Virus record (IMG/VR): IMGVR_UViG_3300037470_000856 | Location: 64,001 to 128,000 of that record | Source of the DNA: a virus | DNA: 64,000 bases | Reading direction: 5' to 3' (one strand) | The notes under the pieces: generated by a model | Databases searched by the model: none | What the model saw: the letters and a program-made list of their open reading frames with translations, nothing else | Told to the model about the DNA's origin: nothing | In this document: in pieces, positions 3,555 to 37,944 of the stretch | Numbering within the stretch: the stretch's first letter is position 1 | Layout of the letters: the number at the start of each line of letters is the position of its first letter | Program-made: the position numbers and the translations under genes

Positions 3555-6500
3555 TCATCTGGCCGCGTCGAGCAGCGCCTTGCGAAGTTGGGGTCTGGCA
3601 AGCGCGAGGCGCAGCACCCGGGCCGCGGTCTTCTTGGCCTGGATCTTCTCCGCGTACCTCTCGCGCTGCTTCTTGAGGCTCTCTCGACGAGCCAGCAGCG
3701 TCTTGTAGAGCTTGTCCTTCTCGGCGCCCTTCGGGCCCCACTGGTCCACGAGCTTCTTGATCTTGCTCTCGGGGATCTCGAGCACGCGGTCGATGCTGTC
3801 CACGATCTGCTGCGGGGTCGCGTGGTGGAAGACGCTCCCGGACTTGCGGTCGGGATCGGTGAAGGTGTCGAGCTCCGTGACCTCGTCTCCGAACGCGTCG
3901 CCCTTCGGCGCTCCCATCGCGCGGTAGCGGAGGGCGCCCCCGGTGTCCACGCGACGGCCTCGTCCCTCCTCGTCCACGAGCAGGTTGTCGTAGTCGAGAC
4001 CGACCACGTCCCAGTTGCCGAGCCACGCGTCCACGGCGATGCCCTCGAGGACTCCGGGCACGTTGCCCTTGCGGAGGGCGCTCGAGTTCTGCTTGAGCCC
4101 CGGGATGATCTTGCTCGCCACGCTGAACTGGCCGTCGCGCGTGGCCGGAGAGAGATCGGGGACGCCGATGCCGGCGAGCTCGTACAGCTTGCCGGCGAGG
4201 ATCTCGTTGCGGGCACGGTCCTCGGACTTCGGCGTCTTCACGTAGTAGCGGTCGCCGTTCTCGGCCTGGTACAGGCCCCCCGGGTTGCTGCCCGTCTGCG
4301 GCCCCACCTGCTTGAACTCGTCCGAGTCGATGTCGAGCACCTCCTGGGACTTCGGAGCCTCGGTCTTCGCGCCGCCTCCAGTCTCGTCGACCTTGGCCTG
4401 GGTCTTGAGGTCCGAGAGGGCCTTCTGCACCGCCTCCACAAGCTCGGGCTGATCCTCGTACACCTCCCACGCCACTTCCTGGATGTCCGCAACGTCGGAG
4501 CCCGAGAGAGGGGCCCCTTTCTGGACCTTGTCGAGAAGCTCGTGCCAGCCGGACTGCGCCTCCTCGTCCCCCTTGTTCATGTCGAGTTTCACGTCGAGCA
4601 CGTCCACGAGGGTGGACTGCGGGGACTTGGGTTTCGGCTTGGGAGGCACGACCTTGAACCCCTTCCCCCAGTTCCACTCGGCACCCGCGGTGTCCTTGAT
4701 GACCCACTTGCCATCGTCTTCGTCTTGGTACACGTCCGCGACCTCGATCTCGTGTCCCTCGAGGTCGGGGTCCGGCACGACGAGGGTGACGCCGGGCTTC
4801 ACCTTCGGGGGAGGCGGACGATGCCAGTCGTCGGCGCGCTCGACCTTGCGTTCCTTCATCTTCTCCGCGTCGAACGACACGGGCTTGAAGCGGACCTGCT
4901 TGCCCGTCTTGGGGTTGTAGACGAGCGCCTTGAAGTCGTCCTCGTCGGCCGAGACGACCTCCCCGATCATCTCCTTGCCCTTGAACGTGTAGCGAATCTT
5001 GTCGCCGATCTTGAGGTCGGATGGCTTGGTGAGATCAGCCGGCTTCTCAGGCTTCTTCGCCTTCGACTCCGTCTCGTCGGGACCCTTGCTCACGGAGCCG
5101 GGGGCCTCCTGCTGGGCCGTCTCCTGCTGGTACTCGGCGTAGACCTTGGCGGCGAACGCCTTGTCCTTCATGGCCGTCGAGGCCGCGACCTCTGGATACT
5201 TGTCCTTGGTCTTCGGGTTTGGGTTTGGGACCTTCTTCTTGCCGCCCTCGTAGCGCTTGCCGAACCACTCGTCGAAGTCGGCGCCTCCCGACGGCTGCTT
5301 CGGGCTCTCCTGCTGAGCTGGAGACGTGGAGGGGGCGTCGAAGATCGAGACCGCCACGCGCTCGGAGGGCGAGTCGAAGATGGTCGTGGCGCGCTTCGGG
5401 ATCTTCCTGATCTGGGCGAACAGTTCGCGCCGGAACCCAACGTTGACGGAGGCGAAACGCAGGATGCGGACGGCCGCGACGCGGGGCGCCTGCTCCTCGA
5501 TGAGCCAATCCTGTGCGTGGCAGTGCTGTGGCCACCATGTGTCCTTGACCGGCGAGCGCAGCCAGTCATCATCCTCGGGCTCGAACTCGATGACGAGTAC
5601 GTCGTCGTCGAAGACCTCGCCGAACAGCGGGCGCCGCTCGTACGAGGCGAGTTTCATCTTCTCCGAGCTGAAGTCGGACATGGAGTGGGGCATGACCTTG
5701 CCCTCCATGCCGTCCTGGCCGGCCACGACGTACTCATTCTCCGAGTACGGCGGCTTGGCCGAGGAGAGGCTCGCGTAGGTCACCGGAGAGACGAACAGGC
5801 GTGAGACGGGCACCTTGTACCTGACGACGCGCTTTTCTGCGCCCGCGAAGTTGTAGGCCACCTGCGGGTCGATCGAGAAGGACGCGAGTTCCCGCGCCGT
5901 GGTCGTCGTGATCTTCTTGCCCTGCGCGGCACCCTGGACCGGCTTGGTCTTGGTGCCGCGGTAGAGGGTGACGTGGTCGACGCCGAGTGCGTCGTAGACG
6001 AGCTGACTGTACGCCATGGCCTTGGAGATGGCGCGGTGCAGGGCCTCGTTCTTGCGCCCCTCCTCGCGATGGTGCTGGACGTTGGCCGCCTCGAAGTACT
6101 TGGGGCCGCCCTCGACACCGAGGTTCTCAAGGCCACCCATGAGTTTGTGGGCCGTTGTTGCACCGCTCGATCCCTGCCAGGAGGAGAGGGCGCCCTGCCA
6201 CGCCTCCCACTCGTCGTCGGTGAGGAGTTTCTTGAACTCGTCCGCGGCGATGTGCCCGGACTGCGCGAGTTTACGTTCGCCCTCGGTCATGTCGTTCCAC
6301 TGGGTCGCGTTCCCGTGCCAGTAACTCTTGCCCGACGACATGTCTTTCACAATGTCCTTGACCTTGTCGCCGATCAGCTCCTTATACTGCTCGAAGAAAC
6401 GGTCAGCGTCACGAGCGATGGAACTGCCGTGGGCCCACGACGAGGGCGGCGAGAGATGCTGGAGCGCGCCCGTGTGGGTCTCCTCCTTGCCCGCCATCGC

Positions 6501-9239
6501 GGCCTCGTACTCGGCCACGTCCTGGGCGTACTGCTCGTCAATCTCCTTGAGCTTCTTGGTGTACTCCTTGACCTGGGCGTCGTACCCCTTCATCTCCTCC
6601 TTCGTGAGGATTCGGGGCTTGCGCTTGTCGATTTTCGCCTGGTCGAAGGAGGGGGTCTTGAAGGTTTTCTCGCCCGTCGTCTCGTCGTACTTCTCGTACT
6701 TGGCGACGTACGCGGGCGGGTAGATGATGCGGACGCGGAACTTCTCGCCGGGCGTGTCCCAAGACACAACCTCGCCACGGTACGCCGTGCCGTTATGCTC
6801 GTACTCGATGACGTCGCCCTCCTGGACCTGGTCAGGAGACGCGACGAGTTTGCCGCTCGGACGCTCAGGGGGCTCTGGAGCCTTGACCTTCTGCGGCTTG
6901 TCGCCGCGCGAGACCTTGAACTTGCCCTTGGTCTTCTCAAGATTCGACTTAGGGAGGACGACTCCACTCTCGAGACGGATACCGGTGGCCGTGCGGCCTA
7001 CGACGCGCTGCGGGCCGTACTCCTTCGTGTGGACCATGTCGCCCGTCTGGATGGCGTCCCAGTCGACCTCGTGGGTCTCGAGTTTCCATTTCCCCTTGTC
7101 GACCTTCTTGGGCTTCTTGGGCTTCCCCTTGCTCTTGGCCTTGGCGAGTTCCTCTTCCGCGTGGAGTTCCATTATGAGAGAAAACGGGTCGACGGGCTCG
7201 CCCTCCTTCTTGGGCTCCTTCTGAAGGGTCTTGGGGACCTTGGACTTCGGCAGCCTCGAGACCTGCAACTCCTCCTCGAAGGTCTTGGGGGAGACCGTAC
7301 GCGTGTCCTTCACCTGCCCAGTCTTCGGGTTGATGATGTTGTAGACGATCCAGCCGTCGTCGTTCTTGATGACCTGCGCGGTGTAGACCTTGCCGCCGTT
7401 GTACTCGTGGATGCGGAGGACGTCCCACTGCTTGAGTTTATTGGGGTCCGTGACCTCCTTGCCGGTGAGACCCTTCTTGACCTTCATCGGCTTGGTCTTC
7501 GTGGTCTCGACCCCCGTCAGCTTGTCGTCGGCGAGGAACCACGGCTTGCCGATGAACTTAGCGGACTTCGGGCTGTAGTCCTGGAGCATCACGCCAGGAC
7601 CGCGCGGGTCGTCGGGCCCTACCACCTCGATGATCTTGCCAAGGTACTCCTCGTTGAAACCATCGGGGTCCGGGATAAGGATCCAGTCGTCCTTGGAGAG
7701 CTGCGACGACGACTGCACCACGTCGCCGACGTCGGCCTTCTCCTTCTCCTTCTCCTTCTCCTTCTTCTTCTCCTTCGTTTTGGAGAGGCCATCCTCGTCT
7801 ACCCACTTGAGGGACCCGTCGGGCATCTCGATCTGGACCTGCATGAAGCCGCCAGGGTGCTTCTTGGAGGTGATCACCTTGACCTCGACGCCAGTCGGTG
7901 TGTAGACCTTTTCGCCAGTCTCGTAGACTGGCCTGAGTTCCCCCTCCTTGTGGTAAAGGTACGAGTGGGCGCCCGGCAGATCGGGCTTGTCTACGTCGTG
8001 CATGTGCACCCACTCGCCGTTGTCGAGCAGGAACTTGTTGCCATGCTTGCTGTCCTCGACCTTCTTGATCTGGTGCGGCTTGCCCTCCATCCAGACGGTG
8101 TCTCCGGCCGAGACATCCTCGCCTCCGGTAACCTTCCCGCCCTCCGGGACCTGCGACGCAGGGTCCTCAACGACCGTGAAGTGCTGACCCGAGAAGTACG
8201 CCTCCGCCTTCTCCTTGGTGATCTTCTGCGTGCCCTTCCACTTGCCGGTGATGTTGTCGAACTGGCGGTAACGGAAACCCCCGTCCGGCAACATGGAGGT
8301 GATCTTGCCAATGGTGCCCCACGCGTTCCCGAAGAAGATTCCGGGAACGATGTCATCGATGCTGTCGAGTTTCGCCCCGACATCCAGTTTCTTGGGTTTC
8401 GGCTTGGTCTTCTTGACCTTGCCCTCCTCCATCGCAATCTCATCCTCGAAGAAGTAGCCGTCCTCCGCCAAGAGAGCGGGCTTGCCCTTCACCTCGCTGT
8501 ACTTCTCGACGGTGAGAGACTTGTCCTCGTGCCCTATCTCGTAGAACGTGTCTCCGGGCTTGAGCGCGGAGAGAGGGCTTTTCTTCTCGTCATCCTTGTC
8601 CTTCTTCTTGGAAACAAAGAAACTCGACCCGTACCCGATGCCTCCGATCGCGGGACGATCAAAATCAAGCTGGCTGACCCACTCGCCCTCCCCCTCGAAT
8701 TTCACCCGAACCCCGAACTTGTCCGGATCGGGCTCAAACTCCGCGACGACCTTCGGACTTCCGCCGTACCAGACTTGGTCCCCCACTTCGAGGTCCTTGT
8801 TGGTGGACACCTTGGCGCCCTCGGGCAGTTCCGTGATTTTCGGAGGCTCAGGCTCCTCCGCCTCGACGCCCTGCTGCAGCCACGCCTGAAACTCCTTCCT
8901 CACCTTCGCGGCGAAGACATGGTCCTTGAGGGCCGTGCTGAGTTGGACCTCGGGATACTGGTCCTTCGTGTCGGGGTTCGGGTTCTTGACCTTCTTCTTG
9001 CCACCCTCGTAGAACAGCTCGAGGAACTCGACCCACTTTCCGGCGTTGCCGTCGGGAGCGGGCACCTCGGCCGGAGGCGGCTCAGGCGGAGGCGGCTCAG
9101 GCGGCTTCTCCTCCTTCGGAGGCTCAGCCTGCACCGACTCGGGCGAGTCGAAGATGGACAGCGCCACCTTCGAACGCGCCTCGGACTGCTCGGCGATCAA
9201 GTCGACGAAGAAATTTGGCCACTCAAGGTCGGACATCAC
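3555..9239 (-). CDS. Giant multidomain protein: SH3/KOW-like repeats, R-S-E ADP-ribosyltransferase (~5690-6250), PI3/4-kinase/HipA-like kinase (~3660-4320)
   Basis: 1894 aa. ART motifs TLYRG / ASFS / ENEYVV. Kinase motifs GSNPGG...YYVK...NEILA...DAWLGNWD...DN...DTGG. About 11 [L/V]xxGDx[V/I]-like units. Confidence 0.85.
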   Translation of the reverse strand: MMSDLEWPNFFVDLIAEQSEARSKVALSIFDSPESVQAEPPKEEKPPEPPPPEPPPAEVPAPDGNAGKWVEFLELFYEGGKKKVKNPNPDTKDQYPEVQLSTALKDHVFAAKVRKEFQAWLQQGVEAEEPEPPKITELPEGAKVSTNKDLEVGDQVWYGGSPKVVAEFEPDPDKFGVRVKFEGEGEWVSQLDFDRPAIGGIGYGSSFFVSKKKDKDDEKKSPLSALKPGDTFYEIGHEDKSLTVEKYSEVKGKPALLAEDGYFFEDEIAMEEGKVKKTKPKPKKLDVGAKLDSIDDIVPGIFFGNAWGTIGKITSMLPDGGFRYRQFDNITGKWKGTQKITKEKAEAYFSGQHFTVVEDPASQVPEGGKVTGGEDVSAGDTVWMEGKPHQIKKVEDSKHGNKFLLDNGEWVHMHDVDKPDLPGAHSYLYHKEGELRPVYETGEKVYTPTGVEVKVITSKKHPGGFMQVQIEMPDGSLKWVDEDGLSKTKEKKKEKEKEKEKADVGDVVQSSSQLSKDDWILIPDPDGFNEEYLGKIIEVVGPDDPRGPGVMLQDYSPKSAKFIGKPWFLADDKLTGVETTKTKPMKVKKGLTGKEVTDPNKLKQWDVLRIHEYNGGKVYTAQVIKNDDGWIVYNIINPKTGQVKDTRTVSPKTFEEELQVSRLPKSKVPKTLQKEPKKEGEPVDPFSLIMELHAEEELAKAKSKGKPKKPKKVDKGKWKLETHEVDWDAIQTGDMVHTKEYGPQRVVGRTATGIRLESGVVLPKSNLEKTKGKFKVSRGDKPQKVKAPEPPERPSGKLVASPDQVQEGDVIEYEHNGTAYRGEVVSWDTPGEKFRVRIIYPPAYVAKYEKYDETTGEKTFKTPSFDQAKIDKRKPRILTKEEMKGYDAQVKEYTKKLKEIDEQYAQDVAEYEAAMAGKEETHTGALQHLSPPSSWAHGSSIARDADRFFEQYKELIGDKVKDIVKDMSSGKSYWHGNATQWNDMTEGERKLAQSGHIAADEFKKLLTDDEWEAWQGALSSWQGSSGATTAHKLMGGLENLGVEGGPKYFEAANVQHHREEGRKNEALHRAISKAMAYSQLVYDALGVDHVTLYRGTKTKPVQGAAQGKKITTTTARELASFSIDPQVAYNFAGAEKRVVRYKVPVSRLFVSPVTYASLSSAKPPYSENEYVVAGQDGMEGKVMPHSMSDFSSEKMKLASYERRPLFGEVFDDDVLVIEFEPEDDDWLRSPVKDTWWPQHCHAQDWLIEEQAPRVAAVRILRFASVNVGFRRELFAQIRKIPKRATTIFDSPSERVAVSIFDAPSTSPAQQESPKQPSGGADFDEWFGKRYEGGKKKVPNPNPKTKDKYPEVAASTAMKDKAFAAKVYAEYQQETAQQEAPGSVSKGPDETESKAKKPEKPADLTKPSDLKIGDKIRYTFKGKEMIGEVVSADEDDFKALVYNPKTGKQVRFKPVSFDAEKMKERKVERADDWHRPPPPKVKPGVTLVVPDPDLEGHEIEVADVYQDEDDGKWVIKDTAGAEWNWGKGFKVVPPKPKPKSPQSTLVDVLDVKLDMNKGDEEAQSGWHELLDKVQKGAPLSGSDVADIQEVAWEVYEDQPELVEAVQKALSDLKTQAKVDETGGGAKTEAPKSQEVLDIDSDEFKQVGPQTGSNPGGLYQAENGDRYYVKTPKSEDRARNEILAGKLYELAGIGVPDLSPATRDGQFSVASKIIPGLKQNSSALRKGNVPGVLEGIAVDAWLGNWDVVGLDYDNLLVDEEGRGRRVDTGGALRYRAMGAPKGDAFGDEVTELDTFTDPDRKSGSVFHHATPQQIVDSIDRVLEIPESKIKKLVDQWGPKGAEKDKLYKTLLARRESLKKQRERYAEKIQAKKTAARVLRLALARPQLRKALLDAAR

Positions 9240-10678
9240 TGTCTCTCTCCGGTCAGGACCCGTCGGAGGGCTCGTCGGAAGTCAGGGTCCTGGAAGGCGC
9301 GATGTCGGAGCGCGGGCACGAGAGGACTTCCTGCGACCTTCTTCTTGCCGGATGAGCGCCACCTCTCTCGCGCCTCGACGAGATTGTCAAACTCCTCCTC
9401 GGTGATCGGGACGGCCCGCTCGGCGAACCAAGCGAGGCTGTCCACGGGGGCGACGAGGTCGCCCCCGTGGATGACCGGCATCTTGGGCTGCACCCACTTC
9501 ACCGGAAGTCCATCGACGTCGAAGTAGAACCCGCTCTCCTCCGCCCGCTTGGACACCGGGGTCTTGCGCTTGCGCCTGGGGATCTTGGGAAGCAGGAGGG
9601 ACTTGGGCGCATCGAAAATGCTCGAGGGCTCAGATTTCGAGGCAGACTCCTGCCACGCGCGCTCGTAGACCTCACGCTGGCGAGAGGTGAGCGTATGGAA
9701 CCGCTCCATCACGTCCTCGGGGATCTCCTCTCTCCTCTTGTCGCGGACCTTGTCGTCGAGCCCCTTGATCTGGGAGTACAGCGCGTGGTTCTGCTCCTTC
9801 GCCTGGAGCATGGGCTTGAGGTGAAGTTGCAGCTCCATAACGTGCCCGTTGGGCAACCTCGCGTTCAGCACGACGTCCCGGTACCCGGCGGCCGTGGCGG
9901 TCCGAAAGCGATTCCGAGGGCGAGAGACGAGTTCTATGCCGCTCTTCTTGAGCTTGTCGATGACCCCTCGGAGGTCCTCGTACTTATCGACGGCGATCGA
10001 CGCCCGCACGAGGTCGACCGCCCCCTCGGACCAGTTCCCTCCGTAGCGCTCTCGAACCTTGTCCTCCGCGGCCTCGCGCTTCTTCGTCGACCCAATCACC
10101 ACGACGGGGCCCGGGGTCGAGTAGTCGATTTCGCCGTCAGGGTCCTCGTCTCGACGGACGACCTCAGCTCCAAGGGCCTTGTCGATCCCCTCACCGCGAT
10201 CGAGCCAGTCGAGCATCTGATCGTGCCCCTCCTCGGCCTGGGCGAAGAGACGGTCCGGGACGGAGTGCGACTGCAAGGCCCACCTGGGGAGTTTCTCGAT
10301 CTCCGCCTCGGAGAACAGGGCCTTCGGCTTGAACTGACGTCTGTGCTCGCCCGGAGGTGCCCACATGCCGCGCCCCCACATCCTCTGCGTCCTGCGTCCC
10401 TTTTGGCGCTTGAGATTCTCGATGAGAAGTTTCCTCTGCTCCGATTTCTGCGGCGCTCCTGGATCGCGCCCGAACACGTAAGCCTCCCACTGCTCGCGGG
10501 GCAGTGGTGTGCCGTTCTCGTCTTTCTTGCGCTGGACGTAGTCCTCGTACTTGGCGTCGGCCGTGAGGACCCGGGCCAGAGATTCACGAAACGCAGGATC
10601 GCTCGCAGCGCGGTGCCGCAGCGCGCGCACGAGGTTCTGGTCAGAAGCGGATCGAAAGTGGGCCATGCGGGCGTTCAC
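9236..10678 (-). CDS. RelA/SpoT-like nucleotidyltransferase domain protein
   Basis: KKREAAEDK, DLVRASI, GYRDVVLN, MELQLH and HALY match RelA_SpoT synthetase-like motifs. Flanked by repeated helical motifs. Confidence 0.75.
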   Translation of the reverse strand: MNARMAHFRSASDQNLVRALRHRAASDPAFRESLARVLTADAKYEDYVQRKKDENGTPLPREQWEAYVFGRDPGAPQKSEQRKLLIENLKRQKGRRTQRMWGRGMWAPPGEHRRQFKPKALFSEAEIEKLPRWALQSHSVPDRLFAQAEEGHDQMLDWLDRGEGIDKALGAEVVRRDEDPDGEIDYSTPGPVVVIGSTKKREAAEDKVRERYGGNWSEGAVDLVRASIAVDKYEDLRGVIDKLKKSGIELVSRPRNRFRTATAAGYRDVVLNARLPNGHVMELQLHLKPMLQAKEQNHALYSQIKGLDDKVRDKRREEIPEDVMERFHTLTSRQREVYERAWQESASKSEPSSIFDAPKSLLLPKIPRRKRKTPVSKRAEESGFYFDVDGLPVKWVQPKMPVIHGGDLVAPVDSLAWFAERAVPITEEEFDNLVEARERWRSSGKKKVAGSPLVPALRHRAFQDPDFRRALRRVLTGERQ

Positions 10679-14984: not shown

Positions 14985-14987
14985 CGC

Positions 14988-27781: not shown

Positions 27782-30700
27782 TCAGGCCACGTCGAGCACG
27801 ACGACGGGGCGAAGCGGGTCGTCCGGGTGGAACGACCGGACGTGCGCGAGCCAATCGCCAGCCATACGTCCGTGGCGACCGCGCTCAAGCCACACCTGGG
27901 CAACGCGCTCAACCGCGAAGCGGGTCGGGCCGCGCTCCTCGAAGTCGCCGAACTCGGCGGAGAATTCCTCGCCGGGAGCCTCGCCCCCGCGCGCCGGCTT
28001 CTTCTCGTCCTCGTCGCCACCCTTGTCGGCGTAGCGCTCGGCCTCGTCGCGCTTCTTGAAACTCTTGGGGACGCCGTCCTCGTTCTTGGCGCGCCAGTTC
28101 CCCTGCTCGGTCCCCCAGACGTCGCCGGGGCCGTGCTCCTCGTCGTCCTTGACCTCCTCAGAGTCCGCACTCTCGGGAGTTTCACGATCGGAGGTCTCTG
28201 CCTTCTCATGCTCCTCCCTGGAGCGTGGCTCCTTGGCCTTCTCGTCGGGGTGCGGCAGCGTCTCCTGCTCGAGCACCTCACGCTCGCCGGTCTGCACGAA
28301 GTGGTTGAGCACCGCGGAGGCAGGCGAAATCACCACCTTGTCGAACTTGTCGCGGATCGTGTTGAGGATGGCCTTCGCCTTCTCGCGCAGTCCGGTTCCC
28401 TTCTTGGGATCGAACGTGCCCTCGACCATCTCGAGGTCCTCAGCCGAGGGCTGCTCGCCGTTCCTCTGCGCCTCCGCGATCCGCTCCTGCGCCTCGAGCA
28501 CCTTCTCCATGCGGGGCTTCATCCGGGAGGTCGCCTCGCCGAGCACCTCGGCGCGCGCCTCGGGGTCGTCGGCGTCGGCGATGCCGGCCGCCTGCATGGT
28601 GTCGCGCACGGCCCGGTCTCCCCACTGGTCGTTGAGGATGTCTTGGACCAGGAAGTCCTTCATCATCGCTCGCAGGACGTCGGGCGTGCCGTCGTTCTTC
28701 ATGAGGTCGACGAGGTCCGCGTAGCCATGCTCCTCGTCGCCGCCCGTGGTGAGATCGCCGAGCTGCTCAAAATTCATGTCGTCGAGCCCCTCCTGCATCT
28801 TGCGGCGCGCCTGCTCGGCGAAGTAGTCCTCGGTCGTCCTGAACAGCTCGGACCCCTTCCCGTCCACGACCATCTGCTTGACCAGCGCGGCCATGCCCTT
28901 GCTCGGCTGCGGACGACCTGGGAGCGACTCGCCAGTCACGGCGACCTGCGCGATGTTCATGCCGGTCAAAATCGCGTTGAGCTCCTGCGCCCGGTTGGTC
29001 TCGGGATCGAGACCCTTGAGGGCCCGCGCGACCTGATCGGCCGCGCGCCTGCGCAGGGACGACGGGAGGCGCTCGAACTGCTTGAACGCCGCCTGCGCCC
29101 GCTCCGAGTACTTCTCGGAGTCCATCTCGGTGACGCCGACCGGCGTCCCTCCGATGTTCATCGGGTTGCCCACGATGCGCTCGGCGTAGCTGAGTTGTGC
29201 GAGGCGCTCCGCGAGCTCTTTCGGGTCGGTGAGGCCGTGCAGATCTCCGAACTTGGCGGCTCTCGACGCGACGTCGACGGCCTCCTCGGAGCTTGGGTCC
29301 ATCTGCTTGAGATTCTTGAGCGTGTCCTGGAAATCGATCGAGAAGCTCTCGACCTGCGCCTCGTCGAGGTCGTTGAGGGCGCCGCCGATCTGCGTGGCGA
29401 GGTCGGGGGGAAGCCGCGTTTCCTTGCCGAGCATCTCCTCCATGTTGGTCTGCGCGCGCTCGACGGCGCGCTCGACCTTCTTGGCCCGCTCCTGGCGCAG
29501 CTTCTCCTCGCGCTTCTCCTTGGCGAAGCCCGGGTCCTTGCGCTCGCGCCTGAGCTCGTCGACGCGCGCCTTGGCGTCCGCGTGCTCCTCCTTCTTGTCG
29601 TCGAGCTCGTCCTGCTTGCGCCCCATCTCGCGCTGCATCTTCTGCATCGAGTCGAGTAGCTGCTGCCTGCCGGGGCCCTCTCCCATGTGAGGCAGGTACT
29701 CGTCGCGCTGCTGATTGATCTTGGACTTGAGGTCCTTGATCTCGTCGGTGAGGTCCCCCATCTGGGCCTCGATGTCGCGCATCTCGTCGCGCGCCTGCTC
29801 GAGCTCGACGTGCACGTCCTCGGTGGTGCGCTCCTTGTCCTCCTCGGTCTTCTTCCCCTTGTCGGTGCCCTCCTCCTCGGGCTGCTGCTGGCCCCGCCAC
29901 TTCTCGCGGATCTTGGTCTGCTCGTCAGGGGGCAGCGAGGTGAAGCCGACGTCGTTCCCGGTCTCGGGGTGCTTGAACTTCTGGTTCTTGACCCACTCCT
30001 CGAAACTCAGGCCGCTCTTGGGCTGCACCGGGGCCTCGGCCATGACGTGGCGCAGGGCCACGCGACGCGCGACCTTGTTCCACTTCATGGACAGGTCGGG
30101 GTCTCCCTTGTCGCCGCCGCCCATGCCGTCGAGGTCAGGGTCTTCCTCGTCCAGAGTCCGGTTGTCGCGGAGGTCGTAGCGCGGAGGCTTCTTCTTGGGC
30201 TCCGTGCGGAGCATCTTCTCGACGGCCTCATCCTCCTTCTCCGCGGGCGACTTCGTGGCCGTCTTCGCCTGCGGAGTCCTGATCATCGCGTCCTGAAAGC
30301 GGAAGTCCTTGTTGCGCCCCTTGTTGGGCCCCTTGTTGGGCACGAAGCCCATGCCGCGGTACCACTTCTCGAGGTGCTTCTTCGACGAGCCGAACTCGGA
30401 GGTCGGGGTGAACGTCACGGTCACGCCGTTGCTGTCAACCCAGTCGAGCGTCTCCTCCATTGCTCTCGAGGCGCTGCCCGACCCGCGCCTGTCCTCGTTC
30501 ACCCGGATCAGGTCCACGGACATGTGGCGGTGCTGCGGACGGTAGGCGGCGTGGGAATCTGTGAGGCTGTGCCTCTCGATCATAGACTTGCGCAGAGCGT
30601 CCCACTCCTCGCGGCTCGGGGGCTCGCGCTCGGGCGCGTCCTCGTCGTCGACGCCCATGACCCTGGCCTCCCACTCTTCGCGGGACAGAGCGGGACCTCC

Positions 30701-33700
30701 CTCTCGGCGCTTGCGCTGCACGTAGGCGTCGTAGGTCGGAGCGGCGAGCCTCGCGTTCGGGCGCGGCCGGTACTGCTCCTCGGGCGAATTGTCGACGTGC
30801 CGGCACATGTCGCAGCGTGTCCCGCACCGCCAGTACTCCTCGGAGTCAAAGGGGTAGCCGTCGTCGAGACCGTAGTGGTCGAGCAGCACGTTGAGGCAGC
30901 GCTCGCAGCTCTTCGCGGCGACCATGATGGCGTCGCCGACGTCCCACTGTCCGCTGCGCACCATGGTGTTGACGAGGTCGGTCGGGTACGACGACTCGCC
31001 CGCGCCTACGTCGGTGCTCGTGCCATCCTCGTTCAGACGTAGGATGCTGTGGTGCAAGACGTGGGGGAACTGGCTGTGCATGTACTCGGCGCCCTCGGGG
31101 GGCTGCCACGTCTCGTACTCGCCGAGGTCGCCGCCGCCGAGGCGGTTGCCATGGGCGTCCTCGTACCAGAGGATCGTGAAAATCTGGGGGTCGAACTCAA
31201 GCCCCTCGACGTGAGGGCGCGGACGCTCGTGCTCTCGGGCGATCCGGTAGACGGCCGGCGCGTTGCGGAGCCACCACCGACGGTCTCGGGACACGAGGAC
31301 CGGGGCAACCCCGGCGTGCGCCAAAATGAGGCGCTCGGTGTCGGTGCCGAGGAGCGCCGCCGTGCGCATGATTTTGGGGTCCGACGCCTTCCTCGTGTGG
31401 CTCTCGTTGACGGTGCCGTCCTTCATGTAGCCGTCCTCCAAACCCGGCACGAGGTACTGGCTGCGAAGGGTCGAAGGATCGTGCCCCACGGCCTCCGCCG
31501 TCGCTTCGAGGGCCTTCTTGAACTCGTCCTTGAGTTTCTTCTCGCGCTCCTTTCTGTCCTCGGGGAGTTTGCCCTTACGGACCTTGCGGAGTTGCGCCTT
31601 CATCTCGCGGTTGGCGTGGAACCCACGGAGGTCCTTCGCGGTGATGTCAAGCGGCTCGAGGTACTCGTTGACCTCCTGCGCCGAGACGCTCAGGACGCAG
31701 TCGTTGGGCTTCTTGCCCTTGCACGCCTCCTTGAGCGCCGAGACAACTCGCGGGTTACTGATCTTCTTCTTCTGCTCGACGCCCGACTTGCCGACGTAGG
31801 AGACCGTGACGGAGCCCCGGCCGAGGGTGATGTGCTTGACGCGCCAGGTTGTGACGCCGAAATGGCCCTCCTTGGCGCTGTCGTCGTTCCCGACGCGCTC
31901 AAACGTCTCGTCCATGAGGCCCACGGCCAACGCGAGATCGCGGGTCTTTTCGTCCTTCGACTTCACGTCCTTGCGGACCTTGGTCTGGAGTTTCTTCATC
32001 TGGCGTCGCAGCTTCTCGACGCGCTCCGCCTTCTTGCGGTTGCGGTCGGCCACCTGACGGTCGCTGTACTCGTAGACCGTCATCTCGTCCCCGTCCTTGG
32101 TCTTGACCTTCTTCTTAGACTTGTAGCGGACGGCGATGGCGGAGCACGTCGCCATCTTGCCCAGGTCAGGCTCGCGGGCCTCCATCTTGTCGCGGTAGCG
32201 GAACACGCGGACGGGGATCTTAGGCTCGCGATCATCGGGCAGCAGGTTGCGACGCCGCACCACCTCCGCGTGCTCAGGGACGAGGTACAGGAACAGCGCG
32301 GGGTGCGTGGTGTCGATGGTGAGCTGGCTCGTCGTCCGCATCTTGTCGGTGACGCGAACCGGGTTGAAGGGGCTGTCGGCGTCGTGAATCGCCTTGACGA
32401 GGGCCACCGCGGCGGCCTCGGGGCGTCGCACGTCCTGAAGGCGCTTCTGGGCCTCCCACCGGCGCACGATCGAGCTGACGTAGTCGTCGCCGTGCGTGTA
32501 GCCGGCGTCCGGGTAATTCACACCGTGGTTCGTCCGCGTGTTGACGCGGTCCGAATCGAGCTCAGTGACATGCGCAGGGTGATTCTTGCTGCACTCGATG
32601 CTGAACAGCTTGTTGCCGTCCGCCACAAACGTGTGTCCCCGGATGCCGCCGTTGTCGGTGCGCAGGGATCCCACGGCGTCGTCGATGTTGTCAAACGCGA
32701 GCGCGCGGTAGATCTTGGGGCCGTCCTTGGAGGTCAAGGGCCTCTTGCCCTTGCCCTTCCCCGGCGACTTTTTCTTGCCCTCGGCCTCGTCGCGTACGAC
32801 CATGAGGGTGGTGTTGACGGCCGCGATGCCGTGCTCGTTGACCCCCTCGAGGTAGCCGGTGACCGTGTCGAGGACGACGGCCATCTCGGTGCCGTCCTTC
32901 TCGATGTGCACGATCTCGAGCTTCGCGTCGTAGGCTCGGTCGCGGTTCTTGAGCAGGCACAGGCTGTCGCCGAAACGGCGCCCCGCGATGATGCACGCCT
33001 CCCTCAGCATGGCGGTCTTCTTGACGGACCTTCCCGAGTCGAGCACGACGATCTCGGACGTGTACGGCTTGCCTCGCACCTCGGTCACCGTGACGACCCC
33101 GTCGTAGCCGTCCTTCTGGAGCGCCTTGGTCAGCGCCTGCCCGCGCTTGCGGTACCGTCGCTCGAGCTGCGCCTTCCACGAGTTGTCGTCGTAAATCAGC
33201 CCGTCGGGGTCGGTGTTGACGGCGAGCACGAGAGGGTTGTCGAGTTTCACGGTGCCCGTGACGTATCCGGGCAGCGGGTCGTCGTCGTCGTCGTCGGTAG
33301 TTTTGTGCGTGACGTAGAACCCCGCGGGCTCGATCTTCTGCTGGTACGGGTCCGACCCCTTCGGGGCCCGCGGTGCCTTCTCGGTGTTGCGCAGGAACTC
33401 AAACTCGACCGGCGTGCCCGTCTCGAACTTGCGACCGCGCTCCTCGACGGTGCGGAGGGGCATCTCGTCGGACCTCCGCGAACTACTCCAGCGCTCGTAG
33501 ACCTTCCGCTGTTCGGCGTCCGGCAGCGAGTCGAAGACGACGTCGTTGCCCGTGTCGGGGTTGCGGAAACGCTGCCCCTTCACCAAGTCGAGAAACTCCC
33601 TGGAGTACGCAGCCTGCTTGCGCCGGTCGGCTCGCCAGATCTTGTAGAGACCGATGACGCGGTTCTTCTTGCGGCCCTTGGGGATCGGCTCGATCTCCAC

Positions 33701-33841
33701 GGACGGCACCCCGCGATCGTCGTCGAACAGGCGCACGACCCGGCCGCGCTTGTTCTTGCCGAACAGCACCTCGTCGCCGACCTTGAAGTCGTCCTGCGCT
33801 GCCAGGTGGCGCATGGCCACGCGTGCGACGAGAGCACTCAC
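27782..33841 (-). CDS. Giant multidomain protein: KOW, ART-like, Ntn-hydrolase (C45-like), DNA topoisomerase IB, GNAT, coiled coil
   Basis: Likely start GTG at 33841 (GTGA overlap), 2019 aa. TopoIB motifs RVGN, GKSG, KDLR, GH, QYL. Ntn motifs CIIAG...KNRD...EGVNEHG. GNAT motifs RRGSG...WYRGMGF. ART-like motifs GFY...NPL...GYDGV...EIVV. Confidence 0.85.
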   Translation of the reverse strand: MSALVARVAMRHLAAQDDFKVGDEVLFGKNKRGRVVRLFDDDRGVPSVEIEPIPKGRKKNRVIGLYKIWRADRRKQAAYSREFLDLVKGQRFRNPDTGNDVVFDSLPDAEQRKVYERWSSSRRSDEMPLRTVEERGRKFETGTPVEFEFLRNTEKAPRAPKGSDPYQQKIEPAGFYVTHKTTDDDDDDPLPGYVTGTVKLDNPLVLAVNTDPDGLIYDDNSWKAQLERRYRKRGQALTKALQKDGYDGVVTVTEVRGKPYTSEIVVLDSGRSVKKTAMLREACIIAGRRFGDSLCLLKNRDRAYDAKLEIVHIEKDGTEMAVVLDTVTGYLEGVNEHGIAAVNTTLMVVRDEAEGKKKSPGKGKGKRPLTSKDGPKIYRALAFDNIDDAVGSLRTDNGGIRGHTFVADGNKLFSIECSKNHPAHVTELDSDRVNTRTNHGVNYPDAGYTHGDDYVSSIVRRWEAQKRLQDVRRPEAAAVALVKAIHDADSPFNPVRVTDKMRTTSQLTIDTTHPALFLYLVPEHAEVVRRRNLLPDDREPKIPVRVFRYRDKMEAREPDLGKMATCSAIAVRYKSKKKVKTKDGDEMTVYEYSDRQVADRNRKKAERVEKLRRQMKKLQTKVRKDVKSKDEKTRDLALAVGLMDETFERVGNDDSAKEGHFGVTTWRVKHITLGRGSVTVSYVGKSGVEQKKKISNPRVVSALKEACKGKKPNDCVLSVSAQEVNEYLEPLDITAKDLRGFHANREMKAQLRKVRKGKLPEDRKEREKKLKDEFKKALEATAEAVGHDPSTLRSQYLVPGLEDGYMKDGTVNESHTRKASDPKIMRTAALLGTDTERLILAHAGVAPVLVSRDRRWWLRNAPAVYRIAREHERPRPHVEGLEFDPQIFTILWYEDAHGNRLGGGDLGEYETWQPPEGAEYMHSQFPHVLHHSILRLNEDGTSTDVGAGESSYPTDLVNTMVRSGQWDVGDAIMVAAKSCERCLNVLLDHYGLDDGYPFDSEEYWRCGTRCDMCRHVDNSPEEQYRPRPNARLAAPTYDAYVQRKRREGGPALSREEWEARVMGVDDEDAPEREPPSREEWDALRKSMIERHSLTDSHAAYRPQHRHMSVDLIRVNEDRRGSGSASRAMEETLDWVDSNGVTVTFTPTSEFGSSKKHLEKWYRGMGFVPNKGPNKGRNKDFRFQDAMIRTPQAKTATKSPAEKEDEAVEKMLRTEPKKKPPRYDLRDNRTLDEEDPDLDGMGGGDKGDPDLSMKWNKVARRVALRHVMAEAPVQPKSGLSFEEWVKNQKFKHPETGNDVGFTSLPPDEQTKIREKWRGQQQPEEEGTDKGKKTEEDKERTTEDVHVELEQARDEMRDIEAQMGDLTDEIKDLKSKINQQRDEYLPHMGEGPGRQQLLDSMQKMQREMGRKQDELDDKKEEHADAKARVDELRRERKDPGFAKEKREEKLRQERAKKVERAVERAQTNMEEMLGKETRLPPDLATQIGGALNDLDEAQVESFSIDFQDTLKNLKQMDPSSEEAVDVASRAAKFGDLHGLTDPKELAERLAQLSYAERIVGNPMNIGGTPVGVTEMDSEKYSERAQAAFKQFERLPSSLRRRAADQVARALKGLDPETNRAQELNAILTGMNIAQVAVTGESLPGRPQPSKGMAALVKQMVVDGKGSELFRTTEDYFAEQARRKMQEGLDDMNFEQLGDLTTGGDEEHGYADLVDLMKNDGTPDVLRAMMKDFLVQDILNDQWGDRAVRDTMQAAGIADADDPEARAEVLGEATSRMKPRMEKVLEAQERIAEAQRNGEQPSAEDLEMVEGTFDPKKGTGLREKAKAILNTIRDKFDKVVISPASAVLNHFVQTGEREVLEQETLPHPDEKAKEPRSREEHEKAETSDRETPESADSEEVKDDEEHGPGDVWGTEQGNWRAKNEDGVPKSFKKRDEAERYADKGGDEDEKKPARGGEAPGEEFSAEFGDFEERGPTRFAVERVAQVWLERGRHGRMAGDWLAHVRSFHPDDPLRPVVVLDVA

Positions 33842-36800
33842 CGGCGCAGCTCCTCGATCACCCGGTCGGTCAAGTGTTGTCCCTTGACCGCGAGCTTGGG
33901 GTCCTGGAGGATGATGTGACGAGCCGTCGGCACGATGTGACGACGGTCGGGCCCGGGCAGCTTGAGGACGTCGATGATGCGGGGGTTGTCCACGGGCGGC
34001 TTGATGAGTTTCTCGACGAGCGCGACAGCGTCCTTCTCGGGCATCGAGACGGTCAGGGCTCGCAGGCGGTCGCGTCCCGACGGATCGAGGAAGGAGATCG
34101 GCGTGGAGGCGGGCACGCCCAGCTCGAGCAGGTCGAGCAAGAACTGCACCTTTCGGTTGCGCCGGAGCTGGTTCGCCATGTACGCGGCGAAGGGCTTCTG
34201 CTCCTGGATCATCTCGGACACCACGTCGAGCAGCCCGAGCATCTTCATCTCCTTGAGGGAGCGCCGGGCGGTCGGCTGGTTGAGGACGTCGTTGACGAGG
34301 ATGGACGCGACGGCCTCCCATGGCATGCGCTTGAGCTTGGGCGCGTTCTTGCGGATCGACCGGATCACGTCGGGAGGGATCTTGAACCCGTACTTGCCCG
34401 TGAACTTGATAGCCCGGAGCATGCGCGTGGGGTCGTCGGAAAACACCCGGTCGGGCTCCTGCGGGCACTTGATGACGCGGCGCTTGAGGTCGGCTCGGCC
34501 GCACCCCGTCAGGTCGATGATCTCCGCCTTGTCGGGCCCGTGCGCCAGGTCGAGCATGCGCCACAGCAGCGTGTTGTGGACTACCACCCCGTTTGCAACG
34601 AAGGCCGGCTCGATCCCGTCACCCATCGAGATGTCGAATACGTCTTGGTCTCCGGCGTCCTCAACCGAGACGACCTCAACGTACTGGTATCCCAGTTCAA
34701 ACAACCGTTGGAGTTTGACATGTTCACTTGCGCTGATAGCCATGAGGCTCGCCAGGAACTCCCCGAAATCACCGCGAACGTAAGCGTCGTGCAGAAGTCG
34801 TTTCGGACGGCGGAGCGCCTCCAAAATACCGCTTTCGGCGACCTCACCACCCTCGTCCGTTCGGTACATCGAAGGTCCTTGGTTGTTTCCGACCCGTGTC
34901 CTGCGTCCCTTCAAAAACCCTTGGAGGTGTTCTTTCGGGACCCCATACCGGTTCCGGCTCTTGCAGGTCTGCTGCGCGTAGTCGAACCCCTTGGTCACCA
35001 TCCACGGCTGGATCTTTTCCCACAGGAGGGCCGAGTCCACGGCATTGAGGTAGACGAACCTGTCCTTCACCTTGCTCAGGACGCCGTGAGCACCGAGGAG
35101 CGCCTGCAACTGCTGTCGGACATGAGGCGACGCCGAGCAGAAGGTGATACGACCCGTGTCAAGTCGAATGGAGCCGTCACCCTCGAGGTAGGCGGCCAAG
35201 AAGGCCCACTGACTCCGCTCGTCGGCTTGGAGGATGGACCAAGGCACCACCTTGTGGTGAGAAGGAGACTTTCCATCCCGCGCACCTCCGCAGTACAGGC
35301 CCAGTTCATCCAGCCACCCCACAACTGCCTTGCTGTCGGCGTAGATGTCGTAGCCGTCTGAGTTCGCGACGAACTCGACGCCCCGCAAGACCCTCACCGA
35401 GCCCTTCTCGATCACCTTGTTCTGCAAAGGTTGGAACCCGAACACAGTGTTGAAACACTCGACGTAGCGGGAAATGAGAGCCCGATCCGAGTTGCTGAAT
35501 GACACCCGCTTGTGTGTGTTCGATCCCTCAGCCACCACGCACCCGATCACGAACGCCAGCTCGGGCGTCATCGCTTCGGGTTTGTGCGCCGCCTTGAGAG
35601 TGCCGCGCTTCGGCTGTGCGGGGTCTTTCAACTCCAAAGTCAGCGGCTCCTGCCTCGTCACCTGCCGCACGGGAACGCAGAGAAGGTCGCCCTCTTCAAG
35701 TTGATCGGCCTGCACCCAAACGTGGTTGTGCCCTCGGAGGACCAAGACTGGATGGTGGTGCGTGCAGGAGAAGGAGTGGCCCCACTCGGTCGTCACCCGA
35801 AGCGTAGGGGCACAGCCGCTGTACTGCCACCCCACAGCCACCGCGGGACCGTCTTTCCCCGCCACGGTCAAATTGAGATCCTGATGGTCTCCCTTCTCTC
35901 GAGAGGCGATCTGGTCGATGCGAAGGATGCCCCTCTCCGTAGGAATGAGGGTGTCTCCGGCCATGCAGTTGAAGGTGAACTCCCGGCGCAGGACGTCCTC
36001 CTCGATCGTCGCGGGGGCGACCGAGTGGGGCTTGTACCCCTTGCCGCCGCTGCCCCCGTAGCTCTCCTTGCGGGCGTTGGCGATCTCGAGCACCTCGCCG
36101 TCGAGATCCTCGCCGCCCACGATCCACGGCCCCTTCACGGTCAGGATGGCGACGCCGTACTGGTTCGTCGTTACGTTGGTCGGCGCCGGGATGTTCCGGG
36201 CGATCTGCTTGGCGAGCCAGTCGGAGTCGCGGCCGGCCTTGGTCATGTCGATGACGATGTCGATGTCCTTGATCGGCTGGTTGATCAGAAAGTTGCGCAC
36301 AGCCCCGCCCACGACGTAGGTGTCCCGGCCCACCCCGAGGCGACGGGTGAGATCGGACAGCCACTTCATCAGGGCCACGTTTTTGCGATGGACGGAGCCT
36401 TCCACGGTCAAGGATGCTACCCGACGCCGGATCCACGTCGAGGCGACCTTCGCCGCGGAGGGCCCCATCTTGAGCTTGTGGACCTCGGGGAGCCCCCAAA
36501 CCTCCATCTCGTCGAAGGCCCATGATCCCTCGGGCACGGGGCCGTCCCACTCGGCGTCCATGCCGGGCATGTAGGCGAGGGTGACGTGGGGCTTGTACTC
36601 GGGGAAGCTGTCCCCGACCTCAATGCCCGCGTCGTGGAGCTCCTGCTTGACGCGGTGCTTGAAGCCCGACAGATCCTTGTCGAACTCGACGGCGACGTGC
36701 GGGACGCGGCGATCCTTGTCGTGGTGATCGAAGTACTCGAGTCCGTTGAGCCGCGCCTCGCACTTGGGCCACCACTTGCGGCAGCACTCGCGGAGCACCT

Positions 36801-37944
36801 CGACGAGCTTCTCCTGCTGCTTCTCGCCCTTGAAGTCGCCGATGTAGAGGAACGTGACGTGGCTCGGAGAGTCGTCGTTCTCGCCCAGGCTCGGAAACTT
36901 CTTCGCCAGGTCCTTGGGCAGCGGGATGAACATGCCGACGGACTCGCCGTCCCCGGTCTTGCTTCCCGTGGCCTTGGCTGTCTTGCCCTTGGGGTACTCG
37001 CCGTACTTCTCGCCCACGACGCCGTCGGGCACCCTGCGCTCGCGCACGATGTCCTTCGGCATCTCGGACTTCTCGTTCTTCCAGGCCTCGAAATGCTTCT
37101 CGCAGAACCAGGCGCGCCCGCGACCGTCTGCCCAGATGCCCTCGCGCTCGGGCGGCTTCTCGCATCCGGCGTGCATGCACTTCGACATGCTGTGACGGCT
37201 GGCGGCGTATCTCCAGAGCTGCGCCACCCGGATCGCGGTTTTCCGGCTGCCTCCGCGCCACTCCGCGAACTCCTTCTGCACCTGGGCGCGGAAGTGCGGA
37301 CTCGTTTTGAGCAGCGTGGAGGCAGCTACCTCGGGGTAGCGCTTCCGCGTCTGCGGATTGGTGTTCAGGACCTTCTTCTTGCCACCGTCGTAGCGTTCCG
37401 CGAGGAACTGCTCCCACTCGGCGCTGGTGGGCTTGCCAGGGTCCTTGGGAGGCTCCTTCTTGGGAGGCTCCTTCTTGGGCTCGGGCTTTTTCTTCGGCTG
37501 CTCCTCGGAGGCCGGCCCCACACGCTCTCCGTGGAGCGCGTTCTTGCCTCGGCCCAACTGGCTCGACGGGCGGTCCACGAGGGCGAACAGGCGTCCTCGA
37601 TCCACAAATCTCAGACCGTGCTTCGGGGCCACGTCCGAGAATTCCATGAGGGGGCCCGAGAACAGGGAGGAGCCGTCGGGCTTCTTGATGTGCACCTCGG
37701 TGTTCGTCACCTTGTCGGCCCACGCCTTGGCCTCGTCCTCCGTCTTGAACCCTTGCAAGACGGCGCCGCCCCTCTGCTGGTGCGCGATCGCCTTGTGCCG
37801 GTCCACCACGCGGACGGGGCCCGAGGGCCACTGGTTCGGGTTCACGTCGGCGACGACGGCGTAGTTGGCCTTCGCCTTCGCCACCCGCACGCGCAGCCAA
37901 GAGTTTGCGGCTTTCGTGAAGTTCTGAATTGCGGAACGCGGCAC
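33838..37944 (-). CDS. Multidomain protein: repeat module + 2H phosphoesterase + class II CCA/poly(A)-type nucleotidyltransferase with intein
   Basis: HVTF and HVTL (two HxT motifs); VVGGAVRN...DIDI, EDVLRREFTFN, DDPTRMLRAIKF. Confidence 0.9.
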   Translation of the reverse strand: MPRSAIQNFTKAANSWLRVRVAKAKANYAVVADVNPNQWPSGPVRVVDRHKAIAHQQRGGAVLQGFKTEDEAKAWADKVTNTEVHIKKPDGSSLFSGPLMEFSDVAPKHGLRFVDRGRLFALVDRPSSQLGRGKNALHGERVGPASEEQPKKKPEPKKEPPKKEPPKDPGKPTSAEWEQFLAERYDGGKKKVLNTNPQTRKRYPEVAASTLLKTSPHFRAQVQKEFAEWRGGSRKTAIRVAQLWRYAASRHSMSKCMHAGCEKPPEREGIWADGRGRAWFCEKHFEAWKNEKSEMPKDIVRERRVPDGVVGEKYGEYPKGKTAKATGSKTGDGESVGMFIPLPKDLAKKFPSLGENDDSPSHVTFLYIGDFKGEKQQEKLVEVLRECCRKWWPKCEARLNGLEYFDHHDKDRRVPHVAVEFDKDLSGFKHRVKQELHDAGIEVGDSFPEYKPHVTLAYMPGMDAEWDGPVPEGSWAFDEMEVWGLPEVHKLKMGPSAAKVASTWIRRRVASLTVEGSVHRKNVALMKWLSDLTRRLGVGRDTYVVGGAVRNFLINQPIKDIDIVIDMTKAGRDSDWLAKQIARNIPAPTNVTTNQYGVAILTVKGPWIVGGEDLDGEVLEIANARKESYGGSGGKGYKPHSVAPATIEEDVLRREFTFNCMAGDTLIPTERGILRIDQIASREKGDHQDLNLTVAGKDGPAVAVGWQYSGCAPTLRVTTEWGHSFSCTHHHPVLVLRGHNHVWVQADQLEEGDLLCVPVRQVTRQEPLTLELKDPAQPKRGTLKAAHKPEAMTPELAFVIGCVVAEGSNTHKRVSFSNSDRALISRYVECFNTVFGFQPLQNKVIEKGSVRVLRGVEFVANSDGYDIYADSKAVVGWLDELGLYCGGARDGKSPSHHKVVPWSILQADERSQWAFLAAYLEGDGSIRLDTGRITFCSASPHVRQQLQALLGAHGVLSKVKDRFVYLNAVDSALLWEKIQPWMVTKGFDYAQQTCKSRNRYGVPKEHLQGFLKGRRTRVGNNQGPSMYRTDEGGEVAESGILEALRRPKRLLHDAYVRGDFGEFLASLMAISASEHVKLQRLFELGYQYVEVVSVEDAGDQDVFDISMGDGIEPAFVANGVVVHNTLLWRMLDLAHGPDKAEIIDLTGCGRADLKRRVIKCPQEPDRVFSDDPTRMLRAIKFTGKYGFKIPPDVIRSIRKNAPKLKRMPWEAVASILVNDVLNQPTARRSLKEMKMLGLLDVVSEMIQEQKPFAAYMANQLRRNRKVQFLLDLLELGVPASTPISFLDPSGRDRLRALTVSMPEKDAVALVEKLIKPPVDNPRIIDVLKLPGPDRRHIVPTARHIILQDPKLAVKGQHLTDRVIEELRR
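34573..35967 (-). mobile_element. Intein with LAGLIDADG endonuclease in the CCA-type nucleotidyltransferase (465 aa)
   Basis: Begins CMAGDTLI, has CTHHHP and VIGCVVAEG / FLAAYLEGDG, ends VVHN followed by Thr. Confidence 0.95.

Follow-up and report, generated by a model that had tools for sequence, protein, structure and literature searches.

In phage T4, the internal proteins IPI-III and the Alt protein share an N-terminal address; they are taken up into the prohead, processed by gp21 and injected with the DNA (PMC9026906, PMC10052503, PMC5512222). In the giant phages SPN3US, phiKZ and 201phi2-1, many internal head proteins bear N-terminal propeptides of 20-254 residues that the prohead protease removes after A-x-E (PMC10052503). 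For the ADP-ribosyltransferases (ARTs), Nudix, 2H and GNAT enzymes of myoviruses, comparative genomics often predicts packaging in the head by virtue of fusions to MuF, portal or protease domains (PMC9503650, PMC5512222). Tagged, head-delivered effectors are already established, as are polyvalent proteins. Here, we describe a module of about 55 residues that recurs in two giant proteins encoded in a 64,000-nucleotide stretch of viral DNA (hereafter, the window), namely, bases 64001-128000 of the single-contig virus record IMGVR_UViG_3300037470_000856 (141,029 bp in total). The new element is a well-folded, widespread domain that is absent from the searched libraries and serves as a recurrent common component of phage proteins. 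The module, which hundreds of further phage enzymes also carry, is probably a shared docking handle, and its most likely use is delivery together with the phage DNA.

We identified three copies of the module, all in the reverse complement of the window:

8880-9035, minus strand: module copy 1, residues 69-120 of the 1894-residue open reading frame (ORF) at 3555-9239, from profile and alignment, with the AlphaFold2 core at a predicted local distance difference test score (pLDDT) of 84-92
5121-5276, minus strand: module copy 2, residues 1322-1373 of the same 1894-residue ORF at 3555-9239, from profile and alignment
37258-37416, minus strand: module copy 3, residues 177-229 of the 1368-residue ORF at 33838-37944, from profile, alignment and BLASTP

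The peptides quoted for these positions in the first-pass annotation are exact in the reverse complement, whereas the frames of the plus strand yield unrelated peptides, which rules out a plus-strand reading. The copies are about 55 residues long, share 22 invariant columns out of 56 and are 46-57% identical in pairwise comparisons. A profile built from the three copies found exactly three matches in the six-frame translation of the whole 141,029-bp record (domain E values 3e-38 to 4e-35), the next-best match having an E value of 5.3. When the 1894-residue and 1368-residue proteins were compared by BLASTP, the module alone aligned (E values 2e-11 and 5e-11; next, 0.33), in agreement with the earlier description of two otherwise unrelated giant proteins. 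The DNA sequences of the three copies differ at many synonymous sites, so the conservation is at the protein level and selection keeps the protein sequence; a recent duplication or repeat of the DNA is ruled out as the origin of the copies by the same differences.

The family extends far beyond this record. A profile search of 1.84 billion representative proteins retrieved 220 clusters at E<=1e-3, 164 of these at E<=1e-10, and every one of the 220 comes from a metagenome or from a contig of an uncultured phage, in many cases a jumbo phage. Scans of viral contigs detected the module in IMG/VR contigs of 31 to 435 kb, with up to four copies per contig; CheckV rates several of these contigs as 19-40% complete, and carriers as fragments of phages of ~450-530 kb, while the 435-kb contig, flanked by terminal repeats, is a complete genome. 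The guanine plus cytosine (GC) content of the carrying contigs ranges from 43% to 66%, indicating that quite dissimilar phages share the family. A pattern scan of one genome per species across 185,579 bacterial and archaeal species produced a single match, in a 19-kb contig of a metagenome-assembled genome, and tblastn searches with the module and with a small homolog found nothing in 50,697 deposited phage genomes.

None of the searched catalogs contains the module. No match at E<=0.01 covers it in the giant proteins in Pfam-A, PHROGs v4 or NCBIfam r20, and queries with the module alone or with small homologs returned from Pfam-A, PHROGs and NCBIfam only chance-level hits to unrelated families (E values 0.008-0.9). 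The module profile matched nothing at E<=10 among the PDB sequences, and a search of the ESM Atlas gave no usable match. Keyword searches of comparative-genomics papers on polyvalent and jumbo-phage proteins found nothing resembling the module. The term "undescribed" used in the first-pass annotation therefore holds for Pfam-A, PHROGs, NCBIfam, PDB sequences and folds, BFVD folds and the ESM Atlas.

The AlphaFold2 model of the module, built from a 36-row alignment, consists of a helix, a strand, an 11-residue loop rich in Asn and Pro, a second strand, a short helix and a long helix, with the core at pLDDT 84-92; the basic beta-hairpin bears the GGKKKVxNPNPxT motif. In the model of a full-length homolog of 343 residues, the same elements are predicted at pLDDT 95-97 and a GNAT-fold enzyme is confidently and separately folded, whereas the N-terminal leader helix (pLDDT ~40-55) and the linker to the enzyme (~48-70) are disordered. 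The low scores of the leader and linker beside a confident module point to an independent domain on flexible tethers, and in these models, the module is an autonomous, self-folding domain of ~55 residues. Searches for similar folds gave best E values of 5 in the PDB and 2.6 in BFVD with Foldseek, and a best Z score of 3.6 against 48,161 chains with VIA-align; for a domain of 55 residues, such scores do not establish a new fold. The MLLE and DnaT structural neighbors (Z ~3) are within the noise and were not used. We also set aside a presumed likeness of the hairpin to H-NS-type C-terminal domains, to which neither Pfam nor the fold searches gave any pointer.

Across 161 copies, Asn19 is invariant, and Gly13, Asn21, Thr24, Val31, Thr35 and Trp53 are each conserved in at least 91%. 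Three Lys positions ahead of the first strand are ~80% basic, position 25 is Lys or Arg in 88% and Lys38 is present in 82%; the mean net charge is +3.5 and the median pI is 9.5. The conserved aromatic and aliphatic positions fit a small hydrophobic core; the polar ones gather on the hairpin, making it the likely functional surface. That such dissimilar phages keep this polar surface so constant suggests that its ligand is the same whatever the host, nucleic acid being the simplest candidate.

The module starts within the first 120 residues of the protein in 134 of the 161 copies and lies 40 residues or less from the C-terminus in 18. Most carriers are single-enzyme proteins. Among 106 homologs examined for partner domains, we found DRAT-like ARTs (27), exoenzyme-type ARTs (17), PI3/PI4-kinase-like domains (5), HAD_SAK (4) and DUF3293/SAM-lyase-like domains (3), the remaining typed partners being GNAT, NUDIX and metallopeptidase domains; about half of the homologs are untyped. 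The partner enzyme of one homolog (P0150) folds as a GNAT, and its Foldseek neighbors include the tRNA-acetylating toxins TacT, AtaT and GmvT. Matches of 15 homologs to phrog_595 ("head maturation protease") were dropped as virion evidence because the aligned part of that profile, a mis-named fusion, is its ART region. The module thus looks like a mobile adaptor, found as one copy on flexible linkers beside each of many unrelated host-modifying enzymes, and the presence of one small domain on at least eight unrelated enzyme folds argues for a role in logistics rather than in catalysis. Given that ARTs account for ~40% of the typed partners, part of this distribution could reflect descent with one enzyme family, and the module might then have no specific function, being a stable folding nucleus or spacer spread with the ART genes by duplication. 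We find this barely credible: the surface-exposed polar and basic motif is near-invariant in the 161 copies, the fusions involve at least eight unrelated folds and either end of the protein, and stand-alone forms exist.

These stand-alone forms are complete genes whose products, of 84 and 96 residues, consist of a leader and a module and resemble small basic internal proteins; there is also a tandem protein with two modules, and all these forms come from short, low-coverage contigs. Furthermore, in two unrelated contigs, tandem paralogous genes, each with a leader and a module, are adjacent (L009, 9902-12279; L016, 9101-10228).

By eye, most copies are preceded by a short amphipathic N-terminal leader, followed by an acidic and then a basic or Pro-rich linker. 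We describe the leader classes by inspection of printed N-termini and give no counts, since pattern expressions were too strict for the homologs and noisy on non-coding GC-rich frames. One type reads Arg-Val-Ala-x-Arg-aromatic-Leu, another is a longer helix-Pro-helix, and the giant proteins have a DW..FF start plus one to three SIFDxP motifs. In proteins with a C-terminal module, the leader stays N-terminal, so that leader and module are separable, the leader being bound to its position and the module not. The short amphipathic leaders look more like the actual address peptide, and since some module-less proteins bear them too, the module itself is probably not the packaging signal.

The 1894-residue protein (ORF 1) comprises two units. 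In the first, a leader with a SIFD-type motif is followed by module copy 1, ~800 residues of beta-rich repeats and a DRAT-like ART; in the second, an internal amphipathic peptide is followed by two SIFD-type motifs, module copy 2, repeats and a kinase-like domain. The features of ORF 1 are as follows:

3555-9239, minus strand: ORF 1, 1894 residues, two units each with leader or SIFD motif, module, beta-rich repeats and enzyme; orthologs in contigs L001/L011 and L002/L013
9141-9158, minus strand: SIFDSP short linear motif upstream of copy 1, read as a pattern and kept in orthologs
5691-6452, minus strand: DRAT-like ART region, residues ~930-1183, from BLAST to small module-bearing proteins that pass Pfam DRAT
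near 5483, minus strand: internal amphipathic leader-like peptide slightly upstream of the motifs at 5331-5384, by inspection
5331-5384, minus strand: two SIFD-type motifs (TIFDSP and SIFDAP) upstream of copy 2, read as a pattern
3639-4352, minus strand: kinase-like region, residues ~1630-1867, with a Gly-rich loop, a Lys and DxxxxN and DxG-like motifs
3558-3620, minus strand: C-terminal amphipathic "type 2" tag (helix-Pro-helix), the same pattern as in the N-terminal leaders of many small homologs

The DRAT score of ORF 1 itself (E value 6.4e-4, 19.4 bits) is under the curated cut-off of 25 bits; its ART region aligns by BLAST with small module-bearing homologs in which the aligned region passes that cut-off. 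The kinase-like region matched nothing in the Pfam search and is recognized by its motifs and by its conservation in eight module-bearing relatives. Within it, positions 3848-4058, around the catalytic loop, are 74-86% identical at the nucleotide level, over 65-140 bases, to genes annotated "ADP-ribosyltransferase" in the Pseudomonas phages Dolphis and Jeremy and the Aeromonas phage ST4; thus, the kinase-like domain, unlike the module, has relatives in cultured phages.

The 1368-residue protein (ORF 2) contains the following features:

33838-37944, minus strand: ORF 2, 1368 residues, with module, 2H phosphoesterase and a CCA/poly(A)-polymerase head that an intein with a LAGLIDADG domain interrupts, from Pfam and PHROG matches and the intein-free ortholog P0021
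36565-36873, minus strand: 2H phosphoesterase, residues 358-460 (Pfam 2_5_RNA_ligase2, E value 1.4e-7; AKAP7_NLS, 1.2e-6)
35953-36321, minus strand: nucleotidyltransferase (CCA-adding/PolyA_pol) head domain, residues 542-664 (Pfam PolyA_pol, E value 9.8e-13; phrog_2244, 3.9e-29)

The suggestion that each copy precedes a different enzymatic block is borne out, with reservations: copy 3 is followed by the 2H and CCA domains; for copy 1, the ART scores under the cut-off and lies ~800 residues further on, and for copy 2, the block is kinase-like by motifs.

The motif (S/T)(I/L)F(D/E)xP is repeated in the disordered linkers ahead of the modules (9141-9158 and 5331-5384) and in the neighboring 480-residue protein, and is kept in distant orthologs (L010, L011 and L013); it could be a docking or cleavage motif. 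The 480-residue protein (9236-10678, minus strand) lacks the module but carries an amphipathic helix-Pro-helix tag at either terminus; a SIFDAP motif lies in its interior (9605-9622). Its center has, by eye, the look of a nucleotidyltransferase of the RelA/SpoT or GrpB type; the Pfam GrpB match, at an E value of 0.07, is at chance level, and nothing was found at 1e-3. These arrangements raise the alternative that the module is a peptide receptor, binding SIFDxP repeats or leaders in cis or in trans, such that multivalent contacts condense the effectors into an internal body in the prohead. SIFD-type motifs 20-60 residues upstream of the modules in the giant proteins and their orthologs, the occurrence of such a motif in the module-less 480-residue neighbor, the multivalency of two or three modules per giant protein and, at noise level (Z 3.0-3.4), the peptide-binding MLLE domains among the weak structural neighbors are consistent with this. 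We nevertheless consider it quite unlikely, given that the leader helix is undocked from the module in the full-length model of the small homolog (pLDDT ~40-55), that SIFD motifs are missing from most small homologs and that the structural likeness is within the noise, MLLE domains being all-helical.

Both giant proteins are encoded in or near the head gene region. The record has a GC content of 64.5% and, per CheckV, is about 31% complete, which places the source phage genome probably at ~450 kb; the minus strand encodes all the likely genes read in the window. Listed in the order of transcription, the block comprises:

41277-44564, minus strand: large terminase with intein, first in the block
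38524-40506, minus strand: portal, followed by a small ORF and then by ORF 2 (2H/CCA, copy 3)
27782-33820 region, minus strand: polyprotein of ~2000 residues with a topoisomerase IB (TopoIB) core, after ORF 2 and followed by several small ORFs
22246-25293, minus strand: head maturation protease with intein
20758-22218, minus strand: acidic scaffold candidate, between the protease and capsid genes
19020-20066, minus strand: major capsid protein
9236-10678, minus strand: the 480-residue protein, ~10 kb past the capsid gene and followed by ORF 1

ORF 2, with copy 3, thus lies between the portal and head-protease genes, and ORF 1 lies ~10 kb downstream of the capsid gene. The block is conserved in a related contig (L015), where it runs CCA, 2H, TopoIB polyprotein, small ORFs, protease, scaffold candidate and capsid, the capsid protein being 85% identical, and there, the TopoIB polyprotein itself bears the module. 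In two related contigs, the 480-residue protein gene, the ART/kinase ortholog and the gene of a third module-bearing giant (module, repeats, ART) are side by side. Taken together, these layouts indicate that the module moves among cargo-like proteins of the head block within this clade.

This setting bears on another alternative, namely, that the module is an intracellular localization signal directing post-infection proteins to a phage compartment or replication factory instead of the virion. In its favor, many of the carrying contigs are from jumbo phages, a group in which some members sort proteins into a nucleus-like shell (PMC9365700); an independent, surface-exposed domain on linkers would suit such sorting. 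However, the giant carriers are encoded in the head morphogenesis block, some carrying contigs are only moderately large and their GC content varies, and the leaders are closer to prohead propeptides than to known nuclear-import features, so that we consider localization very unlikely.

The reading that we favor, tentatively and as somewhat short of probable, is that the module is a nucleic-acid-binding adaptor that tethers virion-delivered effector enzymes. In the first step, the amphipathic leader (in the giant proteins, DW..FF plus SIFDxP) would direct the protein to the inside of the prohead, in the manner of T4 capsid-targeting sequences and giant-phage propeptides. The folded module would then bind a universally conserved ligand via its basic hairpin (GGKKKVxNPNPxT plus the conserved Lys and Arg residues), the ligand most likely being nucleic acid, that is, the packaged or entering phage DNA. 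Finally, the attached enzyme would be held in the head, exit with the genome and act early in the infected cell. The first-pass annotation suggested that the module may be a tag for DNA binding, packaging or ejection, and the restriction of the family to phages, the partner enzyme classes regarded in the literature as head-packaged, the head-block genes and the basic surface all agree with this; the part in which the module itself is the packaging signal probably does not hold.

Several observations weigh against the adaptor. No cultured phage carries the module, so that we infer packaging by way of the leader, any cleavage, DNA binding and co-injection. The Foldseek and VIA-align searches, which the small size of the domain limits, found no fold likeness to a known DNA-binding domain. 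The Peptidase_S77 profile of Pfam matched nothing in five records, with the S77 control also silent, and the Peptidase_S78 profile had no match either, the head protease being assigned from a weak PHROG match. The same leaders occur without the module in this genome, at both ends of the 480-residue protein and at junctions in the TopoIB polyprotein; the leaders are accordingly taken as the address, and the module would not be needed for what the leaders do. The small homologs in more distant contigs have thymidine kinase, methylase, nuclease and RNA ligase genes as neighbors instead of head genes, and one is near ArdC/MPTase-type genes. Additionally, there are phage precedents for the modification of host RNA polymerase by ART, GNAT and kinase enzymes (PMC7824862), which fits the recruitment of a host target equally well.

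Such recruitment, in which the module docks the enzymes on a conserved host hub (RNA polymerase, ribosome, or RNA and tRNA) during early takeover, with or without travel in the virion, is the alternative to which we give most attention, and we regard it as possible, if on the unlikely side. The precedents for its ART, GNAT and kinase partners are T4 Alt/Mod and phiKMV Rac (PMC7824862); the 2H plus CCA, HAD_SAK and NUDIX partners act on RNA ends; small homologs are encoded among early or nucleotide-metabolism genes; and the basic hairpin could bind RNA as well as DNA. Conversely, the SAM-lyase-like partners, the DNA glycosylase (so named in its source) and the TopoIB polyprotein share no protein target. 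If the ligand were a host protein, it would be expected to differ from host to host; the polar surface, however, is near-invariant over contigs of 43-66% GC. Moreover, the module nearly always accompanies N-terminal leaders typical of prohead-targeted proteins, and in this phage clade, it is found in the head gene block.

A more specific form of the adaptor reading is that the module is a new nucleic-acid-binding fold that acts as a "genome escort", clamping ART, kinase, GNAT, NUDIX and RNA-repair enzymes on the chromosome in the capsid, entering with the DNA and acting locally. In this form, the proposal is doubtful; if true, jumbo phages would have a general and portable way to load their payloads that differs from both the T4 peptide tag and MuF.

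The window and its surroundings have further features. Inteins with Hint and LAGLIDADG domains are present in three window genes, encoding the large terminase, the head protease and the CCA enzyme, and a methyltransferase protein (16385-18901, minus strand) has a LAGLIDADG endonuclease domain with no Hint match; this load of intein-type elements is unusually high for one 64-kb stretch. A second shared module, of ~40 residues with the core F-(K/R)-N-P-(E/D)-T-G-N...SLP..EQ, occurs twice in the TopoIB polyprotein (27782-33820, minus strand) and once in a 1223-residue ORF just upstream of the window start (59048-62716 of the whole record, minus strand). The metagenomic protein P0151 carries both this module and the ~55-residue one, which are thus two distinct elements. 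The TopoIB polyprotein and the 480-residue protein also have in common a short "Y..YVQRK...REEWEA" stretch. An acidic protein of 315 residues (25951-26898, minus strand) contains a (KDD)n-like Lys/Asp repeat and three copies of HGY(S/V)LTA, the last at its C-terminal end; this peptide may serve in the head block as a further tag or cleavage motif. In the scaffold candidate (20758-22218, minus strand), a stretch around "VRLASAM.P" resembles the helix-Pro-helix leaders of the module-bearing proteins, and if that resemblance is real, the cargo leaders may imitate a scaffold motif.

The comparison with the described systems shows both likenesses and differences. As with T4 capsid targeting, diverse non-structural proteins, including an ART, share an element, and small basic proteins occur beside large enzymes. 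However, T4 uses as its address a peptide of ~10 residues, which is unfolded and is removed by cleavage, whereas the module is a folded domain of 55 residues that also occurs in internal and C-terminal positions, with a separate leader. A T4-type capsid-targeting sequence, defined as a ~10-residue N-terminal peptide that ends at an L/I-x-E site and is taken off by a gp21-family (S77) protease, does not describe the folded module; the separate upstream leaders may be the functional counterpart. The leaders are reminiscent of the targeting peptides of T4 and of the N-terminal propeptides of SPN3US-type giant phages (PMC10052503). Many leaders precede Ala-x-Glu-like strings in the acidic linker, as in SPN3US-type propeptides; homology to these is undetectable, and the strings may simply reflect Glu-rich linkers.

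The likeness to MuF (SPP1 gp7/Mu F) is that a phage-specific N-terminal domain is shared by unrelated payload enzymes (ART, Nudix and 2H) with genes near those of the portal or head, the proteins being interpreted as delivered by the virion (PMC5512222, PMC9503650). MuF differs in being several times larger and in having no sequence relationship to the module, which has stand-alone forms of 84-96 residues. The Phage_Mu_F profile (PF04233) matched none of the 106 homologs and none of the five carrier records (0/5), whereas the control genomes were positive. Because the partner classes are predicted to be head-packaged elsewhere and no MuF was detected here, the module holds an analogous architectural position. 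ORF 1 and ORF 2 are phage-encoded, each with at least two effector domains and an association with packaging or head genes, and the combination of ART and kinase-like or 2H and CCA domains in one polypeptide is that of polyvalent proteins (Iyer et al. 2017). Unlike these, most module carriers have a single enzyme; the module is outside the Pfam polyvalent-protein families detected, and keyword searches of Iyer et al. 2017 gave no match.

Even if its function were host-target recruitment, the module is a compact, well-folded, widespread domain missing from the searched libraries and merits a family entry. If it is indeed a payload handle, it would be a small portable tag to try for loading foreign proteins into phage particles. 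It would also provide a sequence marker for injected effectors in viromes, where most of the module-linked enzymes, including about half of the 106 homologs, are now unannotated. For the phages that carry it, the module would then represent a second, domain-based solution to cargo loading beside T4-type peptides and MuF.

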